Of a stretch of DNA of 57,113 bases, positions 2,710 to 38,148 are shown piece by piece; position 1 is the stretch's first letter, and each line of letters begins with the position of its first letter. The DNA is from Minisyncoccia bacterium (lineage in GTDB: Bacteria > Patescibacteriota > Minisyncoccia > Phycocordibacterales > Phycocordibacteraceae): contig JBGPJZ010000003.1 in NCBI GenBank assembly GCA_041485695.1, positions 1 through 57,113 on the forward strand, in the 5' to 3' direction. Below the pieces are notes generated by a model that saw only the letters and a list, made by a program, of their open reading frames with translations, had not been told where the DNA came from and searched no databases. Both the position numbers and the translations under genes were made by a program.

Positions 2710-3393
2710 TTAGTCTTTGATTGAGCCGCGGAGATGCTCAAGATAGCGAGCGGCTGCCGCTTGGCCGCCAAGGCCGAAGGAGAGGCCGACCGCAAGCGAG
2801 ATGGCAATCACCACGCCCGTGAAGAGGGTCTGCACGAAGGCCGTCGCAATCTGCAATTGCGCCATGGCGGCGAGTATCGCGAAGATCCAGATCGAGTAGC
2901 GAGCGACTGAGCCCATCAAGTTCGCCGCCTGGAGGCCAGCTGCGCGGGCTGAACCTGCGACAACGCGCTGTGATGCATCAGCTACGATAGCTGCTACAAG
3001 CAGGATCATGACCGCAACGATTACCTGCGGGAGGTACCCGAGCACTACCTCGCTCAAGAAGGCGTTGACCGCATCAAGGTGAAGCACGCCGAGCGCGGCT
3101 ACCAAGAAAACGACAATGACAAACCACTTGACCAGGATGCCGAGGAAAAGCCCCGATGAGAGGCTGTACCCGGCGCGCTCTACGACACGGTCAACACCAG
3201 CTGCCTTAAGCGCGCTGTCGATGCGGAGCGAGTCGACAATCTGTTTGACGACACGCTCGAGACCGAGGCCGATGAGCCAGCCGATGACGAAGATGACGAT
3301 CGCGATGACTAAATTGGGGATGAACACGATAAGCCCTGACAGGAGGTTCTGAAAGGACTGATTGAGTACATCCGCCCACGTGGTGAAAACCAT
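2710..3393 (-). CDS. Small-conductance mechanosensitive channel-like protein (CmpX/TM-helix repeat type)
   Basis: Multiple TM helices with the pattern FIPNLVIAIVIF...GYLPQVIVAVMILL, ending GLSFGLGG. Confidence 0.85.
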   Translation of the reverse strand: MVFTTWADVLNQSFQNLLSGLIVFIPNLVIAIVIFVIGWLIGLGLERVVKQIVDSLRIDSALKAAGVDRVVERAGYSLSSGLFLGILVKWFVIVVFLVAALGVLHLDAVNAFLSEVVLGYLPQVIVAVMILLVAAIVADASQRVVAGSARAAGLQAANLMGSVARYSIWIFAILAAMAQLQIATAFVQTLFTGVVIAISLAVGLSFGLGGQAAAARYLEHLRGSIKD

Positions 3394-4496: not shown

Positions 4497-4987
4497 GCGT
4501 TTTTAGTTTTTGCCACCTCACTAAGAGCAATCGCAAAGCGCTGAAGTGGCGAGTTGATAACATTGGCGAACATTCCGCGGAGAATGGGCATAGACGGTAT
4601 TGTTGCGATGGCCGTCATTTTAGCCGCATCAGCAAATGCATTTTCAAAGATACCGCCCATGATAGTGAGCGCACCCTTGTACTTTTTCGCGTGCTCGTAG
4701 ATCCCGCGCGCTGCAGAGGTCGAGTCGCCCTCGCTCCACGCAAGCGCGATCTCACCCTCCATATCAGGCGCTTGCCCTGCGTAGCCCTGCTTCTCAAGAG
4801 CAAGGCGAAGTAGGGTCTTCTTTGCGACGTAATAGCCGACACCTTCGCGCTTAAGCGCACGACGCATCGCTGCCGTGTCGGCAACGGTGAGCTTGTGAAA
4901 GCGCACGAATACCGCCGACGTCGCCTTAGAGAGCGCGTCAGAGACTTTCGCGATTATCTCGCGCTTCTTATCTTTCGTAATTGCCAT
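4493..4987 (-). CDS. rplJ: 50S ribosomal protein L10
   Basis: [33 protein letters not shown] overlap with rplL. Confidence 0.96.
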
Positions 4988-5056
4988 ACATTTTCTGCAC
5001 GAACGAATTGAAAGGAGATTCGACCTGGTTTACCTCGAGTTTAATCGAGAGGTCTC

Positions 5057-5150
5057 CCTCGGCAGGACTTACGGGCATGCCACAAGGGCACTTCCAGATT
5101 CCTAAGTCGTTCTACTCCTAAGGAATCTTAGGTCGCCTGCTGTCTTCGGC
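5057..5150 (-). promoter_or_regulatory. L10 ribosomal protein leader (autoregulatory RNA)
   Basis: Minus strand GCCGAAGACAGCAGG ... CCTGCCGAGG, the characteristic ends of the L10 leader, upstream of rplJ. Confidence 0.8.
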
Positions 5151-5329: not shown

Positions 5330-7442
5330 GGGCGTTTATCGTATCCAGGTCAGACTGGGCCGCTTCATTGCCCGGCTCAAACGTGAGAATCTCCTCGAGA
5401 AAGAATTTCGCATTAGGGAGGTCGAGCGTCTTTTCATAATAAACGACGGCGCGTTTCGCGGTAAGGAGATTGGATACGTAGGAAGCCTTGCCGAGCGCCG
5501 CCTCTTTCGCTGCACTCGCAGCATCGCCAAGCGCCACGTAAAGCTCAGCGAGGACAAAGTGGGGCTCGGAAAGACTCGGGACAAGCGCAATATAATCACG
5601 CAGTGTCGTGACCGCCGTCTGATATAGTCCTGTCCTCTCGGCTCCCGGCGGGAGTGTTTTTGCTTGCCCGATAGCGATGTTCGCGAGGATATACCACGAC
5701 TGCGGGCGTTTTGGCGAGAGGTCAATCACCTGCTTCAGCACCTGCTGCTCGTACGATGAGTCGACTGCCGTACCCGTAGGCGCAGAGTCCATAACCTGCA
5801 GAAGATAAAGGCCCGTGCGCGCGTCATAGGGGTACTGTCCGTAGTTGCGTTTCAAGACGCTAACAGCGCTTTCATACGCTTTCGTAAGGTCTTCTCCTTT
5901 TAACAGCGGGAGTTGTTCATTGGTGTACTCAAAATAGGCGTTGTAACCGAACTCGAGGTCGCCATAGGTACCGAGCGCAAGACCTTTTTCAGTATCGGCT
6001 TTCGTGCGATTCACGTCAGAGACATGGTAGAGGTACGCGGTAAATGCGAGCCGGTTCGCTTCAAGAGGCCTCACGATAATGGGGATAAGGAGGAGGAGGA
6101 GGGCAGCCCCGATGCCCGCACCGACCCATCGTACGCCGTGTGGCAGCGGGAGTACGGAGGAGCTGCCGCCGGTCTCACGCGCAAGGACGAGCGCGGTAAG
6201 CACTACAAGGAGCCAGAGGGTCACCCCGGTATCGAACACGAAAAAGTTCTGTAGCGCGTAGGTGATGAAACCGAGAAAAAGAAAAAGCCCGTACCGCCGC
6301 CACATGCTCCCTGGCGCTCCTCGACGCCACAGGTCGAAGCTTGTCACGAGAGCCGCCGCGATGAGTGCCAGATAGAGCGCAAGGCCGATCGCGCCGAACT
6401 GTATGAGGTAGTCGAGATAGGCGTTGTGCGAACGGTCAAACCACTCTTCGATAATCTGCGTAGGGTCGTAGATGCGGTTGAAAAGGTAGTCGATGTGCTC
6501 GGCGCCCCATCCGAGGATTGGCTTCGACAATGTCTCGGGGAGCATCTGCTCCCACAAGAAGAGGCGGCTTGAAACGGTCGCGTCAGTAAGCGATATCGAG
6601 GCGATGCGTTTTATCGGCTCAAACGGTACTGATGCAAGCGGGCCGCGAAACACAAAAAAGAGTATGACCAGCGCGGCCGCGCCTGCAATGCCGCGCAAAG
6701 CCCAGGTGCGCTTAGCGCCAGCGCTTCGCATCCCTTCATACACCAGGACTCCGGCACCGATGAAAATAAGTGCGAGCAGCGTGCCGCGTGTTGCGGCAAG
6801 CGCTATCCCAAGGAGTTCGAGCCACGAACCAGCTACGAGAGCCCTATGCTGCCACCCGCTCGCATCTTTCAACACCGCGCGCGTCACGAAAAAAGCCATG
6901 CCAAGATACGCCGCAAGGAAAGCCGCGTTGCCCATGGTCCCCCCGACGCGGCCACTCGCCTGCGCGATAAATGAGAGATTGGCGCCTGAATAGATGTTGA
7001 GCCACTGGATGAGCACGTACAGCCCGGCAATCGAGCCCACCCACGCGATGAGACGCAAGAACCGGCTCGTAAACGCCTCATCGGCCGTCAGTATGATGAG
7101 GTAAAAATAGGCACTGCAGACGGTGAGGGTAAGGAGGCCATCGCCGCGTTCAAAGGTTGACCAGAAGCTTCGATAGAAATCGATGCCCGATAGAGAGGCC
7201 AGATAAGCAACGAGGAGAAGGGTAACGGGTATCCACGTTTGCCAACGCTTCAGGCGTTCCCAGAAAAATGATTGCCCTCCGAGTGCAAGATAGGTAAAGA
7301 GAGCGAGCGCGATGATACCGAACGCTCGCAAGGCGAGCGTCTTCGGCGTCATCATGGGGTACATGAGCCCGTCAATATAAAAAAGTGGCAGGAGCGCAGG
7401 GGCTAAGAGAACCCATGTGTACGCTTTCGAGAGAGACTTCAT
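5313..7442 (-). CDS. O-antigen ligase/oligosaccharyltransferase-like (Wzy_C) membrane protein with C-terminal TPR-like region
   Basis: About 12 TM helices. GTMGNAAFLAAYL, RGTLL, SRLFLW, PILGWGAE and DRSHNAYLD motifs. Confidence 0.88.
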   Translation of the reverse strand: MKSLSKAYTWVLLAPALLPLFYIDGLMYPMMTPKTLALRAFGIIALALFTYLALGGQSFFWERLKRWQTWIPVTLLLVAYLASLSGIDFYRSFWSTFERGDGLLTLTVCSAYFYLIILTADEAFTSRFLRLIAWVGSIAGLYVLIQWLNIYSGANLSFIAQASGRVGGTMGNAAFLAAYLGMAFFVTRAVLKDASGWQHRALVAGSWLELLGIALAATRGTLLALIFIGAGVLVYEGMRSAGAKRTWALRGIAGAAALVILFFVFRGPLASVPFEPIKRIASISLTDATVSSRLFLWEQMLPETLSKPILGWGAEHIDYLFNRIYDPTQIIEEWFDRSHNAYLDYLIQFGAIGLALYLALIAAALVTSFDLWRRGAPGSMWRRYGLFLFLGFITYALQNFFVFDTGVTLWLLVVLTALVLARETGGSSSVLPLPHGVRWVGAGIGAALLLLLIPIIVRPLEANRLAFTAYLYHVSDVNRTKADTEKGLALGTYGDLEFGYNAYFEYTNEQLPLLKGEDLTKAYESAVSVLKRNYGQYPYDARTGLYLLQVMDSAPTGTAVDSSYEQQVLKQVIDLSPKRPQSWYILANIAIGQAKTLPPGAERTGLYQTAVTTLRDYIALVPSLSEPHFVLAELYVALGDAASAAKEAALGKASYVSNLLTAKRAVVYYEKTLDLPNAKFFLEEILTFEPGNEAAQSDLDTINAHEKSN

Positions 7443-33990: not shown

Positions 33991-35589
33991 TCACATCTTT
34001 TCGGGGGTGGGAATACCGAGTAGTTTGAGCCCGTTTTGCATGGTGTTCACGAATGCTCGCGCGAGCATGAGCTTGTGCGCCTCGTGCTCCCCGCCAATAA
34101 TCTTTTCTTTCGCATAAAAAGAATTCCATTCGGCCGCGAGTTCGGTGAGATAGGTGGTGAGGAGGTTCGGCGCGAGCTCGTGTGCGGCGCGCGCGACGAT
34201 TTCAGGGAAATGCAAGATGTCGCGCTCGATGAGATACGGTACTTCAGGAGGAGTCTCGATACGAGCCTGCTTGCTCGCCTTCTCAAGTACTGATTTCGCG
34301 CGCACCAAGGCGTACTGCAGATACGGCCCGGAATCGCCCTCAAGCGAGAGCGACTTCTCGGGGTCAAAGGTGATGTCGGAGCCCGACGCCTGCCGGAGAA
34401 TCATGTATTTGATTGCGCCGATTGCGACCTCTTCAGCGACGAGCGGGTCTTCGTTCTTCTCGCTCGCTTTCTTGATGACGTCGGTAATAAAATCACTCGC
34501 AGTGATGACATTCCCCTCGCGCGAAGACATCTTCCCGCTCGCAAGCCGCATAAATCCGTGCGCGACGTGCGCGGTCTTTTGAGCGAGCAGAGGCGCGACA
34601 TCGTGGAGCGCCGCAAGGACGGTCTTGAATCGCCCTGCCTGCTCATTACCGGTCACGATGATGACACGGTCGCTGGGCCAGCGCTCCTCGCGGAGGAATG
34701 CGAGCCCCAAATCCTTCGCCTCATAGGTCGGCGTGTCGTGCGAGGTGATGAACACCATCGTATGCACGCCCTTCGCTTCACCGTCATAGATGATGGCGCC
34801 GTCGCTCTTCTTGAAAATCCCCTTTGCGAGGCCGTCCTGCACGATGCGCATGCCGGCCTCGGTCGTATCGCTATCAAAAAGCTCGAAGTCATATTTTGTG
34901 CCGAGAAGGCTCCAGGTACGGCGGAATTCTTGCATCGAGACCTCACGACCGCGCTCCCATAAGCTCATGAGGGCGACATCTTTACCCGCGTATACCGCCT
35001 TGCTTAACGTATCAATCTCTCCTTTGGCGCTGGCGTCTTCTTCATATGCCTTTGCCCCTTTCGCGTATGCCTCGCCCAGCTCCTTGGCATCAAAATCAAT
35101 AACCGCGTCTTTCTGTAGAGCCCACAATGCTTTCGCGACATTGGGGCCCACGTCGCCACCGAATGTATCGCGTGCGACCGTCGCTCCTCTTGACTCGATG
35201 AGGCGCGAAAATGCCTCGCCAATGATAGTGCCCATCATGTGCCCGATATGCATCTCTTTAAACGCATTCGGGTTGCCGTACTCAATCATCACGCGGCCGC
35301 CAGTTGGCGGAGCCGCCATATCGTTCCCTCTCCCCCACTCCTCGCCTTTTGCATCTGCTTCGGCAACCGCAAAACTAACCGCCTCGCGCGAGAGCGTGAT
35401 GTTCACGAATCCTGGACCCGCAACTTCAACGTGCTCGGCGTCCGCGCCGAGCACGTCTTTGAGCGTCTTGGCGACTGCTTCGGCCTCCTTCCCCACAAAC
35501 ACAGCATAATCCCCGTGCGCCGGGTCAGGCGGCCGCCTAATCGCGCCCGCACTCTCCGAGCCTAGAGCTTTTCGTATCCTCTCTTCCAT
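33991..35589 (-). CDS. argS: Arginine-tRNA ligase
   Basis: GPGFVNI, EYGNPNAFKEMHIGH, KMSSREG, GDSGPYLQYALVR, C-terminal PEKM. Confidence 0.97.
   Translation of the reverse strand: MEERIRKALGSESAGAIRRPPDPAHGDYAVFVGKEAEAVAKTLKDVLGADAEHVEVAGPGFVNITLSREAVSFAVAEADAKGEEWGRGNDMAAPPTGGRVMIEYGNPNAFKEMHIGHMMGTIIGEAFSRLIESRGATVARDTFGGDVGPNVAKALWALQKDAVIDFDAKELGEAYAKGAKAYEEDASAKGEIDTLSKAVYAGKDVALMSLWERGREVSMQEFRRTWSLLGTKYDFELFDSDTTEAGMRIVQDGLAKGIFKKSDGAIIYDGEAKGVHTMVFITSHDTPTYEAKDLGLAFLREERWPSDRVIIVTGNEQAGRFKTVLAALHDVAPLLAQKTAHVAHGFMRLASGKMSSREGNVITASDFITDVIKKASEKNEDPLVAEEVAIGAIKYMILRQASGSDITFDPEKSLSLEGDSGPYLQYALVRAKSVLEKASKQARIETPPEVPYLIERDILHFPEIVARAAHELAPNLLTTYLTELAAEWNSFYAKEKIIGGEHEAHKLMLARAFVNTMQNGLKLLGIPTPEKM
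35297..35311. repeat. Palindromic element family A inside argS (encodes PPTGG)
   Basis: ccgccagttggcgga, 14/15 identical to the family core. Confidence 0.6.
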
Positions 35590-35606
35590 TAGAACGAGTG
35601 TAACAG

Positions 35607-35640
35607 AAAAGCCGCCCCGGATGCATCGGAGCGGCTTTTT
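35607..35640 (-). terminator. Terminator after the YjjX-like gene
   Basis: aaaagccgc / gcggctttt. Confidence 0.75.
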
Positions 35641-35657
35641 GTAGATTCACATCGATG

Positions 35658-36227
35658 CTAGTCGTTCGGATTGAACACACGATACTCATCAGGACTAATA
35701 AGTACAGTGAAAGCCGAAAGGACGGCCTGTGTGATGATCGACTCGCGATCGAGTATCCCTTTTGAAAGGTATTTGTGAGGATCTTTCTCTCCGCCGCCAG
35801 CGCATCTTTGGATGATGGTGCCGATTTCAGTCTTCTGTTCCTGAACTTCAGTCACCATCCACGTCGGAATCGGTAGACCAGCGCCGACCGAACGACCTTG
35901 AATCTGCCAACGCGGATACACAATGGCGACTGCCGGTGGATCAAACCAGCGACCATCGATTTGGACAAGACCGTTTTCGATACCGATGCCAATCTCCGCA
36001 TTATGGGCCTCGCGCGCTAATCGCGCGCGATTAAGCGCGCCTGTGAACATTTCATCGAAACCGAAAGGTTGCGCGGGTATACCAGATTCAGTTTCCTCGC
36101 TCCTAAGTTCATAGGGAGAAAGAGGCAAGTCACCCATCTTCGTTATGTCGTGCTCAATGAGCTTCTGAATCGCCTTCTCTACCGCACGAATCTTAAGGGC
36201 ACTTTTCGTGCCGACTACAATAATCAT
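35658..36227 (-). CDS. yjjX: Inosine/xanthosine triphosphatase (YjjX/DUF84 family)
   Basis: VVGTKSALKIRAV, SGIPAQP, GALNRA, GIGIENG. Confidence 0.85.
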   Translation of the reverse strand: MIIVVGTKSALKIRAVEKAIQKLIEHDITKMGDLPLSPYELRSEETESGIPAQPFGFDEMFTGALNRARLAREAHNAEIGIGIENGLVQIDGRWFDPPAVAIVYPRWQIQGRSVGAGLPIPTWMVTEVQEQKTEIGTIIQRCAGGGEKDPHKYLSKGILDRESIITQAVLSAFTVLISPDEYRVFNPND

Positions 36228-36376
36228 TGCAATCCCCGTAAAGAACTACCGGGGGTACTCTACGCTACGCGAAAGAAGACGCAAGTCACTACTTGAACGA
36301 CTCGGGGATGGGGTGCGCGAGGATCGTCATGGACGATATGTTTGATCTTTCGTTTCAAAACAATAGTTTGTCTCAC

Positions 36377-36396
36377 TGGTATGATATATCATACCA
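36377..36396. promoter_or_regulatory. 20-bp perfect palindrome TGGTATGATATATCATACCA (copy 2)
   Basis: Identical to the core of the palindrome at 36835. Starts 9 nt past the stop of the TrpR-like gene. Confidence 0.8.
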
Positions 36397-36405
36397 ACTA
36401 GCGAA

Positions 36406-36831
36406 CTATCCGGAGAGAGATGCGCTCAAGAACTTCCACCGGCCGCGGCCTGCGCGCGGCGGCATACCAAAGTGAATCACGCGGACCAGCTCATCCATGA
36501 ACGTTTCGCGTTTGAAGTGTTGCGTATGCTCGCGTGCGTAGCGCGTAATGTGGTCGTACTTCCCCGCCTTCACGTCCTTCCATACACGGATGACGGTTTG
36601 ACGAGTAACGCCAAGCGCATCCTGGATTTGAGTAAAGGAGTACTTACGCACCAAAAGGACGACTGTAGCGAGTCGTTTCGCGAGCATTACTCGCTCGGTT
36701 TGCGAGAGGAGTTCATTTGCAAGTATGCGCGCTTCTTTCTTACTCTGTGCGAGAGATAGAAATGTCAAAAACTGATCCGCGAGCTCCGTTGTCACCTCTT
36801 TCTTTATCCGTTTTTTCGAAACATGCGGCAT
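36406..36831 (-). CDS. TrpR-like (YerC/YecD) transcriptional regulator
   Basis: ELLSQTERVMLAKRL...YSFTQIQDALGVTRQTV. Confidence 0.85.
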   Translation of the reverse strand: MPHVSKKRIKKEVTTELADQFLTFLSLAQSKKEARILANELLSQTERVMLAKRLATVVLLVRKYSFTQIQDALGVTRQTVIRVWKDVKAGKYDHITRYAREHTQHFKRETFMDELVRVIHFGMPPRAGRGRWKFLSASLSG

Positions 36832-36834
36832 AGG

Positions 36835-36862
36835 TAAATGGTATGATATATCATACCATTTA
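36835..36862. promoter_or_regulatory. 28-bp perfect palindrome overlapping the extended -10 (TGgTATGAT) of the TrpR-like gene
   Basis: taaatggtatgatatatcataccattta, 3 nt from the start codon. Confidence 0.85.
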
Positions 36863-36888
36863 GTACCTGCTCAATTCTAACCTGCTTT

Positions 36889-38148
36889 TTACTCGAACGA
36901 TTCGGGGATGGGATGGACGAGAGCCATTGAGCGGATTTGTTTTCGGGCATTTGCGACGGTCTTTTTATCGCGCTTGGTGAGTACCTCGAGCATTATCTCG
37001 GCGACGCGGGCACAATCTTTCGCCTTGAAGCCGCGGGTTGTGAGTGCTGGGGTACCGAAGCGGATACCGGAGGGGTCCATCGGCTTACGCGTATCATCTG
37101 CGATTGCGTTCTTGTTGAGCGTGATGCCCGCTTCGTCTAAAAGCTTCTCCGCTTCACCACCCGAAATATTGAGCGAGGAAAATACATCGGCCAAGATAAG
37201 GTGATTATCCGTGCCGCCCGTCATGAGCCGCACCCCGCCCTTTTTAAAGACCTCCGCCATCGCCTTAGCATTTAGTACGACTTGTTTTGCATATTTTTTG
37301 AATGAAGGATCCAGTGCCTCACCAAACGCCACTGCCTTTGCCGCAATTTGGTGCATATGTGGCCCACCCTGGAAGCCCGGGAACACTGCCTTATCTACCT
37401 TTTTCGCGAGCTCTTCACTCTCTCGCACTAAGATGAGCCCGCCGCGCGGGCCACGCAAAGTCTTATGCGTCGTGGTCGTCATGAGGTCGAAACCGTAATC
37501 AAAAGGATTTTTTGCTGCGCCTCCGGCGATGAGCCCCGCGATATGCGCGACATCCGCCATCGAGTACGCCCCGACTTCTTTTGCGATACTCGCAATCTTC
37601 TTCCAATCTAATTCGCGTGGGTAGGCCGAGAAGCCGCCTAGGATGACCTTCGGCTTTTCTTTGAGCGCCGTCGCGCGAAGCGCGTCGTAGTCAATCTCGC
37701 CTGTCTCAACATTTTTCATCTTGTACCGGATGAAACGGAAGATTTTCGAGATGTAGGTCACCGGGTGGCCATGGGTCAGGTGCCCGCCGTGCGAGAGGTC
37801 CATGCCGAGGATGGTGTCGCCTGGCTCGCACATGGCGAAATAGGCCGCGATGTTGGCGTTTGCGCCGCCCAAAGGCTGCACGTTCGCAAACTTCGCGCCA
37901 AAAAGCTTTTTGGCGCGTTCAATCGCAAGCAGCTCTACCTTGTCGGTAAACTCTTGGCCGCCGTAGTAGCGTTTCCCCGGATACCCTTCAGAATATTTGT
38001 TCGTAAGCGAGGAGGCCATCGCCTCCTTCACCGCGCGCGAGACGTAATTCTCTGAAGGGATGAGCTCGAGCCCTTCTTTTTGCCGTTTCTCTTCGCCCAT
38101 CAAAAGGTCGTAGAGTTTCTTGTCTTCTTTTTTGATGTGCTCGTACAT
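36889..38148 (-). CDS. glyA: Serine hydroxymethyltransferase
   Basis: LIPSEN, EGYPGKRYYGG, TTTTHKTLRGPRGG, GIRFGTPALTTRG. Confidence 0.99.
   Translation of the reverse strand: MYEHIKKEDKKLYDLLMGEEKRQKEGLELIPSENYVSRAVKEAMASSLTNKYSEGYPGKRYYGGQEFTDKVELLAIERAKKLFGAKFANVQPLGGANANIAAYFAMCEPGDTILGMDLSHGGHLTHGHPVTYISKIFRFIRYKMKNVETGEIDYDALRATALKEKPKVILGGFSAYPRELDWKKIASIAKEVGAYSMADVAHIAGLIAGGAAKNPFDYGFDLMTTTTHKTLRGPRGGLILVRESEELAKKVDKAVFPGFQGGPHMHQIAAKAVAFGEALDPSFKKYAKQVVLNAKAMAEVFKKGGVRLMTGGTDNHLILADVFSSLNISGGEAEKLLDEAGITLNKNAIADDTRKPMDPSGIRFGTPALTTRGFKAKDCARVAEIMLEVLTKRDKKTVANARKQIRSMALVHPIPESFE

Follow-up and report, generated by a model that had tools for sequence, protein, structure and literature searches.

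A TrpR/HisR-fold gene bracketed by two copies of a candidate palindromic binding site in a Minisyncoccia bacterium

Here, we report a gene of the TrpR/HisR fold family that is bracketed by two copies of one perfect palindrome in a Minisyncoccia bacterium (Patescibacteriota). It lies within positions 1-57,113 of contig JBGPJZ010000003.1 (the stretch called the window below) of assembly GCA_041485695.1 (619,902 bp, 12 contigs, 97% complete). Independent comparative lines indicate that the encoded protein very probably binds the palindromes. On balance we also think it probable that they are its cognate sites, the upstream copy serving negative autoregulation and the downstream copy acting as a second, cooperating operator and not as a switch for the next genes, yjjX and argS. 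Autoregulation via the upstream copy is moderately supported, whereas the role proposed for the downstream one is uncertain. The fold, the conservation of the bracket, the co-variation of site and recognition helix, and the co-occurrence of site and gene are computed results; binding, repression, and the downstream role are inferred.

The 20-bp perfect palindrome TGGTATGATATATCATACCA occurred exactly twice in the window (36377-36396 and 36839-36858), with zero occurrences expected by chance (100 dinucleotide shuffles), and allowing 3 mismatches brought up no additional copy there. A search of the whole genome (619,902 bp, up to 4 mismatches of the 20-mer) gave no third copy and no other half-sites. 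The upstream copy is extended to 28 bp (arms of 14 bp, versus 10 bp downstream), ends 3 nt before the ATG of the gene (7 nt for its core), and lies 27 nt past the glyA stop; the centers of the two sites are 462 bp apart. Both copies carry TGGTATGAT (TGnTAnnnT) on both strands, and no direct repeats were found outside the palindromes. The features at the center of this report are as follows.

36835 to 36862, no strand: upstream site, 28-bp perfect palindrome TAAATGGTATGATATATCATACCATTTA, with the 20-bp core at 36839-36858
36377 to 36396, no strand: downstream site, a 20-bp perfect palindrome that repeats the upstream core, 9 nt past the stop of the TrpR/HisR-fold gene
36406 to 36831, minus strand: TrpR/HisR-fold gene, 141 aa, with ATG at 36831 and stop at 36406-36408
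36850 to 36858, minus strand: extended -10-like word TGGTATGAT in the upstream palindrome, 18 nt before the ATG (same word on the plus strand at 36839-36847)

A preliminary description of the locus, made from the window alone, had reported two identical palindromes around a TrpR-like gene, an extended -10 on both strands of each copy, and serine hydroxymethyltransferase (glyA), a DUF84/YjjX-type NTPase, and then argS as neighbors. Coordinates, the 28-bp form, distances, promoter-like words, and neighbors were all exact, and the genome scan that it proposed returned only the two flanking copies.

By sequence and predicted fold, the protein is assigned to the TrpR/HisR fold family. Residues 19 to 91 matched PF01371 (Trp_repressor) with 29.9 bits (gathering cut-off, 27), and TIGR01321 (TrpR equivalog) scored 20.6 bits, far under its cut-off of 67.25. 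When a profile of 79 homologues was compared with PDB, the YerC/HisR-type structures 3KOR, 3FRW, and 3G1C were found with E values of 2e-8 to 1e-5, and E. coli TrpR with an E value of about 0.1. The AlphaFold2 monomer model has six helices (pLDDT 85-96 for residues 11-100; poor for 102-141), and the top 42 Foldseek matches against PDB were all TrpR or TrpR-like (target TM 0.58-0.81, probability 0.96-1.00), with E values of just 0.01-0.6. The predicted helix-turn-helix spans residues 66-88, with recognition helix GVTRQTVIRVWK. Alignment with E. coli TrpR by hhalign (E = 1e-5) paired Arg53 with TrpR Arg54, Gln78 with Ala80, Thr79 with Thr81, and Arg82 with Arg84. Thr79 and Arg82 are invariant in the family; in the corepressor-pocket comparison, Arg53 and Arg82 were invariant or nearly so, and other pocket positions differed. 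The protein presumably acts as a dimer like its relatives, with which the two-fold symmetry of the sites is consistent.

A C-terminal appendage of ~40 residues (102-141) holds the conserved motif GMPPRAGRGRW. In the family, the best-conserved segments are N-terminal MxHxS, TExxMLAKR, and C-terminal GMPPRxGRGRW, the last of which is missing from TrpR and HisR; the N-terminus is Lys-rich, and the conserved C-terminal motif is Arg-rich. No conserved His-hydrophobic-His motif was found in the homologue alignments. Similarity to transposases was limited to a weak helix-turn-helix likeness (IS630, 17.6 bits; IS1, 13.1 bits; cut-offs, 100). No paralogue was found in this genome, and no second reading frame within the 426-nt gene. 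The protein is neither TrpR nor HisR. About 180 homologues were collected, and every named one is from Patescibacteria. Two loci (L073 and L080) are contigs of 35-40% GC labeled as Gammaproteobacteria/Lysobacterales metagenome-assembled genomes, which are probably mis-binned because contigs of this GC content carry the Patescibacteria-specific family. One further locus (L046) has two tandem partial homologues (1776-2039 and 2840-3094).

The bracket recurs across the family. We compared 80 homologue loci (30-82% identity) together with the window, counting perfect palindromes (arms, 7 bp or longer) no more than 80 nt upstream of the start or downstream of the stop. Of the 81 loci, 52 had such a palindrome upstream and 50 downstream, 40 having one at both ends, and carriers ranged down to ~31% identity; the remaining 541 kb of locus DNA contained 74 (0.011 per 80 nt), for an expectation of ~0.9 loci. 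The preliminary description had said that homologues lacking flanking palindromes would speak against it, and that is not what the family looks like. Across clades, the flanking palindromes are nearly all ATATAT-centered, and all 12 close-clade loci had the upstream core, which carries 1-2 mismatches in four. Orthologous sites remain exact while their flanks diverge, so their exactness is explicable by selection and recent copying is not needed.

Half-sites differ between lineages, the two copies of one locus share the same lineage-specific half-site, and the arms vary with the recognition helix. The half-site TATGATA (TGATA) went with a [TS]xQT helix, containing Gln, in 18/18 loci and in 0/44 others; xxCGATA went with SxST in 23/23, and further pairings were TATCATA with MS[YP]xT, TACAATA with SPTT, and TACAGTA with SPVT. 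When the helix columns were left out of the tree, each trait switched ~4 times, on branches common to both and also within one supported subclade. Three paralogues of one genome have different palindrome arms. The co-varying residue, Gln78 here, stands in the first turn of recognition helix E at the position of TrpR Ala80, the residue that in TrpR enters the major groove. This comparison was among the checks that the preliminary description had proposed. Separately, a hybrid site, TACAATATATCGTA, was observed at G041:C1:7031-7044 (the genome of L043, L067, and L072), joining the half-site TACAATA of one paralogue type to TACGATA of another.

Gene and palindrome also occur together. Among 41 genomes (this one, G000; 24 congeners; and 16 of the same order), a close homologue was found in three, namely G000, G017 (two copies), and G023; the sole homologue of G025 has 36% identity. 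The 16-mer GTATGATATATCATAC, searched with up to 1 mismatch, was present in 2 copies in G000, 6 in G017, and 11 in G023, all exact. It was thus found in 3/3 carriers of the gene, versus 1/38 genomes without this gene type (37 without any homologue plus G025; Fisher p = 4e-4). That one genome (G016, 87% complete) had no homologue that we could find and a single exact 16-mer (C4:7656-7671, L133) read as GMIYHT in an open stretch; the lone copy is either a relic after gene loss, or the gene is in the unassembled part. A distant genome with three paralogues had 11 exact copies of its own core and one hybrid site. The second flanked gene copy of G017 (L006) lies at a different locus, whose flanks are not syntenic in the present genome.

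Copies away from the gene in these relatives lie largely within coding sequence. Intragenic copies in G023 and G017 (L122-L132) were in genes for PyrD, RecG, a glycosyltransferase, a ZIP transporter, Dus, UvrC, and a Mur ligase, and L003 has one palindrome copy within ArgS (5894-5911), inside a 9-residue insertion. All intragenic copies are read in one frame, as (G/S)MIYHT (9/9, p = 0.004). Measured against the orthologues of this genome, several copies are insertions, adding 9 residues to RecG, 7 to the glycosyltransferase, and 5 to Dus; the one in the ZIP transporter replaced a stretch of equal length (GSQHHS to GMIYHT). Two species share the position of the RecG copy, which in G017 forms a 36-nt perfect palindrome. 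The present genome contains no intragenic palindrome copies.

According to the reading that we favor, a TrpR/HisR-fold dimer would recognize ATATAT-centered TGGTATGATATATCATACCA, one recognition helix reading each half-site (TATGATA plus the flanking GG) and Gln78 helping to specify TG at -5/-4 from the center; the sole recognizable sites in this genome would be the two copies around the gene itself. The upstream copy overlaps the sole promoter-like element, TGGTATGAT, and the 5' end of the gene, so that binding would stop production of the protein from transcripts that begin in the palindrome as well as from those continuing out of glyA. The downstream copy, in the 3' untranslated region, may be a second operator, acting by cooperative looping over ~460 bp or by blocking RNA polymerase as it enters or leaves the gene. 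TGGTATGAT in the upstream palindrome may act as a promoter. A canonical -35/-10 promoter scan of 35500-37100 gave no match, and TGnTAnnnT was found 6-8 nt before the ATG in 40/431 long open reading frames (ORFs) of this genome (peak at 6 nt), a position that implies widespread leaderless mRNAs. Promoters of this clade thus appear to be of the extended -10 type, with argS as a clear example, and the palindrome half-site matches that type. At its position here, TGGTATGAT would give the gene a leader of ~11 nt without a Shine-Dalgarno sequence. The autorepressor proposed in the preliminary description gains candidate binding sites from family bracket, co-variation, and co-occurrence, and autoregulation is the simplest account of the upstream copy.

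The surroundings of the palindrome-gene-palindrome unit, all on the minus strand, are as follows.

36889 to 38148, minus strand: glyA (serine hydroxymethyltransferase), conserved upstream neighbor (PF00464, E = 5e-152; synteny)
36289 to 36345, minus strand: glyA 3' remnant reading SNISSMTILAHPIPESFK and a stop, a diverged direct repeat of 36889-36945 at a distance of 600 nt
35658 to 36227, minus strand: YjjX/DUF84-type NTPase (PF01931, E = 5e-27)
35607 to 35639, minus strand: terminator-like hairpin AAAAGCCGC...GCGGCTTTT past yjjX
35605 to 35597, minus strand: extended -10 of argS, TGTTACACT, 7 nt before the argS ATG at 35589

The idea that the protein also gates the YjjX-like NTPase is not supported in the form in which it was put. 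The gene order of the closest relatives is dcd-dcd-thyA-glyA-(unit)-argS-ileS, yjjX being missing from the slot in 9/9 of the closest loci that show the junction, where argS comes next; yjjX is therefore an extra gene here. It is patchy (4/24 congeners) and is at another locus, without the remnant, in G003. The 150 nt between the downstream palindrome and yjjX contain the glyA 3' remnant and two hairpins. Family-wide, downstream neighbors are convergent in 31/75 loci (41%), the co-directional ones are varied (RpiB, RuvA, RecA, GyrB, and others), and no downstream partner gene is conserved. The downstream copy is not read as a yjjX switch, given the lineage-specific nature of the yjjX insert and the 41% share of convergent downstream neighbors. 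One small point favors gating, namely that the sole TGnTAnnnT upstream of yjjX is inside the palindrome and that L005 has a different triphosphatase (CYTH) in the yjjX slot (4509-5102). Extra ORFs of 360 and 226 aa lie between glyA and the regulator gene in L010 and L007, respectively, and the junctions adjoining the palindromes resemble gene-insertion hot spots. The arrangement TGnTAnACT-N6-8-ATG is also found ahead of argS in relatives, whether or not they have the unit, and argS here has a promoter of its own.

The unit occupies the same glyA-argS junction in at least 10 species and is present in 3/24 congeners. In many congeners, glyA is followed directly by argS (22-93 nt apart) without palindrome, remnant, or scar, and the GlyA tree mixes occupied with empty junctions, with 6 or more changes of state. 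Dcd (88% identity), ThyA (79%), and GlyA (89%) were closer to their L009 counterparts than were the TrpR-like protein (63%) and ArgS (65%); to L001, L003, and L011, identity was 79-80% for GlyA and 81-82% for the TrpR-like protein. By these comparisons, the unit appears to have a different history from glyA and behaves as an accessory block. Sliding-window identity showed no sharp switch that would mark a mosaic breakpoint in glyA, because the species are too diverged; the identity break falls between genes. The remnant comprises the last 18 codons and the stop of glyA (repeat family D1, 84% over 32 nt; tblastn versus glyA, 55.6% over 27 aa) and is nearest to W/L009-type GlyA C-termini (34/45 nt to L009, 30/45 to the glyA end of this genome). 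It is probably the scar of illegitimate recombination at the unit edge. No relative with glyA adjoining yjjX was found among the loci examined.

Mobility had been offered as the alternative in the preliminary description, with the palindromes as ends of a cassette and empty sites in relatives as a check. Part of this stands, namely the presence or absence of a block at one junction, the scar-free empty sites, and a history unlike that of glyA. The locus shows no transposase, no target duplication, and no extra copies in this genome, and no relatives were found among INPHARED phages, PLSDB plasmids, PHROGs, or IMG/VR. An insertion sequence or MITE (a miniature transposable element with inverted repeats) was rejected, given one gene copy with two palindromes, no transposase, no target-site duplication, and the same junction in at least 10 species. 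As an observation in its own right, the glyA-argS spacer of two congeners (L088 and L089) contains a ~58-nt MITE-like insert with 10-bp terminal inverted repeats (CCGTTAGATA / TATCTAACGG), flanked by duplicated GGTACACT within the argS promoter; the site is uninterrupted in L093.

Several findings weigh against the autoregulated two-operator reading. It is not obvious what a regulator gains if its sites solely surround its own gene, and 21/24 congeners lack the gene. The distance from upstream core to ATG ranges from 5 to 38 nt in the close clade, and other clades have half-sites unlike a -10. There is no promoter for the downstream copy to control, the next gene often being convergent, as noted above. 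In relatives, this copy precedes a separate GC-rich terminator hairpin and is 40-60 nt upstream of the argS -10, so it is neither a terminator nor an operator of the argS promoter. Helical phasing between the sites was absent from the centre-to-centre spacings of 39 loci (Rayleigh p = 0.16-0.59), which neither supports nor excludes looping at ~460 bp. For the co-variation, just 1-2 independent pairs fall on well-supported branches, too few for a sign test, and therefore no p-value is claimed. Unlike a normal regulon, all copies in relatives are exact, and 8/11 dispersed copies in G023 and G017 are in frame inside conserved genes. Finally, symmetry extends beyond the partner-shared core by at least 4 bp in 20/82 copies (~0.3 expected) and by at least 2 bp in 31/82 (~5 expected), which is more than binding by a helix-turn-helix dimer would be expected to constrain. 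The extra symmetry may stem from hairpin or cruciform formation or from template switching that makes mutations symmetric.

A selfish partnership is a further reading, which we think unlikely. Protein and palindrome would form a self-maintaining pair resembling REP/RAYT systems but with a non-catalytic TrpR-fold partner, an accessory unit of a kind not yet described that is exchanged between related Patescibacteria genomes by recombination. Copies would multiply by fold-back or template switching, even in frame into conserved genes, the protein being retained for tolerating, protecting, or managing them; this genome, with no dispersed copies, would be the founder or minimal state, and the glyA remnant at the unit edge its arrival scar. 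The patchy distribution, interspersed scar-free empty junctions, and identity drop between GlyA and the TrpR-like protein in L009 (with no such drop in L001, L003, and L011) speak for this reading. So do the glyA remnant, the second flanked copy in G017, the invariable exactness, the in-frame insertions in RecG, ArgS, Dus, and the glycosyltransferase, the ZIP transporter overwrite, and the single reading frame of the nine intragenic copies, and the copy-specific symmetry suggests a symmetrizing process at the DNA level. Against this, the protein has a helix-turn-helix alone and no catalytic domain, this genome has a single gene copy and no dispersed palindrome, the junction is the same in at least 10 species, there is no target-site duplication, and empty sites hold no solo palindrome. 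The searches of phage, plasmid, and virus collections described above were negative, and orthologous sites are exact despite diverging flanks, so selection can explain exactness.

We consider it quite improbable that the protein is a chromosome-organizing or DNA-transaction protein that binds a few exact palindromes without a transcriptional role, in the manner of MatP-matS, Noc, or SlmA, the sites beside its own gene being merely the first loading place. Relatives have just 6-11 sites each, all exact and most of them within genes, a pattern typical of positional and not of promoter sites; the family lacks a conserved partner gene; and the Arg-rich C-terminal motif and Lys-rich N-terminus would suit extra nonspecific DNA contacts. 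However, two flanking sites are too few for a chromosome-wide role, most congeners dispense with the gene, the six sites of the complete G017 genome show no obvious clustering, and none of the three model systems is known to bracket its own gene. Least probable, in our judgment, are hairpins that need no protein, acting as RNA or DNA stem-loops (terminator, insulator, or mRNA-stabilizing ends) for glyA and the regulator gene, with gene conversion between the two copies accounting for their identity. Both copies fold far better than shuffles (upstream, -16.8 kcal/mol, z = -4.2; downstream, -17.1 kcal/mol, z = -3.35), the symmetry of each exceeds the shared core, downstream arms tend to be longer (18 loci, versus 9 with longer upstream arms), and the upstream copy is the sole hairpin between glyA and the regulator gene. 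Yet the terminator scan passed over both palindromes, because their stems are AT-rich and lack a U-tract, and an intrinsic terminator was therefore rejected; relatives have their own GC-rich terminator past the downstream copy. An Rfam scan gave no relevant known RNA family. Hairpins alone also fail to account for why arms and recognition helix vary together, why genomes without the gene lack the 16-mer, and why the ATATAT center is invariant across clades.

Compared with known systems, the protein appears to work most like an autoregulated TrpR/HisR-type repressor. TrpR and HisR bind 20-bp palindromes and commonly autoregulate (PMC9413887). As in E. coli TrpR, the fold is the same, a palindromic candidate operator of ~20 bp lies over the -10 of the gene itself, specificity bases are 4-7 bp from the dyad, and Arg53/Arg82 are kept at the Arg54/Arg84 positions. 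It is no orthologue of E. coli TrpR (TIGR01321, as above), and the 40 extra C-terminal residues, the lack of trp genes, the second identical site past the stop, and a site unrelated to TGTACTAGTTAACTAGTACA are further differences; TrpR proper was rejected on the TIGR01321 cut-off and on the genome's sole sites, which flank the gene itself. HisR (Bacillus subtilis YerC) is represented by the nearest solved relatives by profile (3G1C, 3KOR, and 3FRW). HisR operators are 20-bp palindromes with lineage-specific consensus, and about half of HisR proteins are autoregulated; they are shorter than 100 aa and control his biosynthesis and transport genes through the consensus cacTTTAnnnnnnTAAAgtg (PMC9413887). 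A HisR identity was rejected, since the site here is unlike cacTTTAnnnnnnTAAAgtg, no sites occur elsewhere in the genome, the neighbors are glyA, yjjX, and argS, and the protein has 141 aa; ATATAT-centered sites solely around the gene, an appendage, no his genes nearby, and a family confined to Patescibacteria also differ from HisR. The site-gene-site layout, the C-terminal appendage, the copy exactness and extra symmetry, and the dispersal in relatives are outside the TrpR/HisR paradigm.

Other likenesses are partial. REP/RAYT systems (REPtrons) share a single-copy gene flanked by palindromes that it presumably recognizes, the dispersal of palindromes in some relatives, and the joint presence or absence of gene and palindrome. 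RAYTs are HUH/Y1 transposase-like enzymes, and REPs are GC-rich, extragenic, and present in hundreds of copies, whereas here the fold is a non-catalytic TrpR fold and the palindromes are 2-11 AT-rich exact copies, often intragenic in relatives. Membership was rejected, with Pfam, NCBIfam, and the fold search giving TrpR or helix-turn-helix matches alone and no HUH/Y1. Rickettsia palindromic elements are 100-150 bp long and have no dedicated partner protein. Like them, relatives of this genome, although not this genome itself, carry palindromic DNA in frame in tolerant loops of conserved genes; unlike them, the inserts are short (16-36 bp) and linked with one particular helix-turn-helix gene. 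InsA of IS1, a small helix-turn-helix repressor, has as its targets the terminal inverted repeats of the element that encodes it. The small helix-turn-helix protein with candidate sites at both unit ends, one over its putative promoter, recalls this arrangement, but here there is no transposase frame, each site is itself palindromic, and the unit is not multicopy. No earlier description of this site-gene-site system was found in the literature searched, the coverage of which was incomplete.

Patescibacteria (candidate phyla radiation [CPR]) have very few regulators, and to our knowledge none has been characterized together with its DNA target. For a large CPR-specific branch of TrpR/HisR proteins, the locus offers a falsifiable prediction at the sequence level, comprising the site, the half-site positions 4-7 bp from the dyad, and the reading residue Gln78, which is testable with purified 141-aa protein and short oligonucleotides and needs no culture of the organism. 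With two sites, one gene, and zero other copies, this genome is the cleanest test case, and the locus bears on the spread of binding sites or tiny palindromic elements in minimal genomes.

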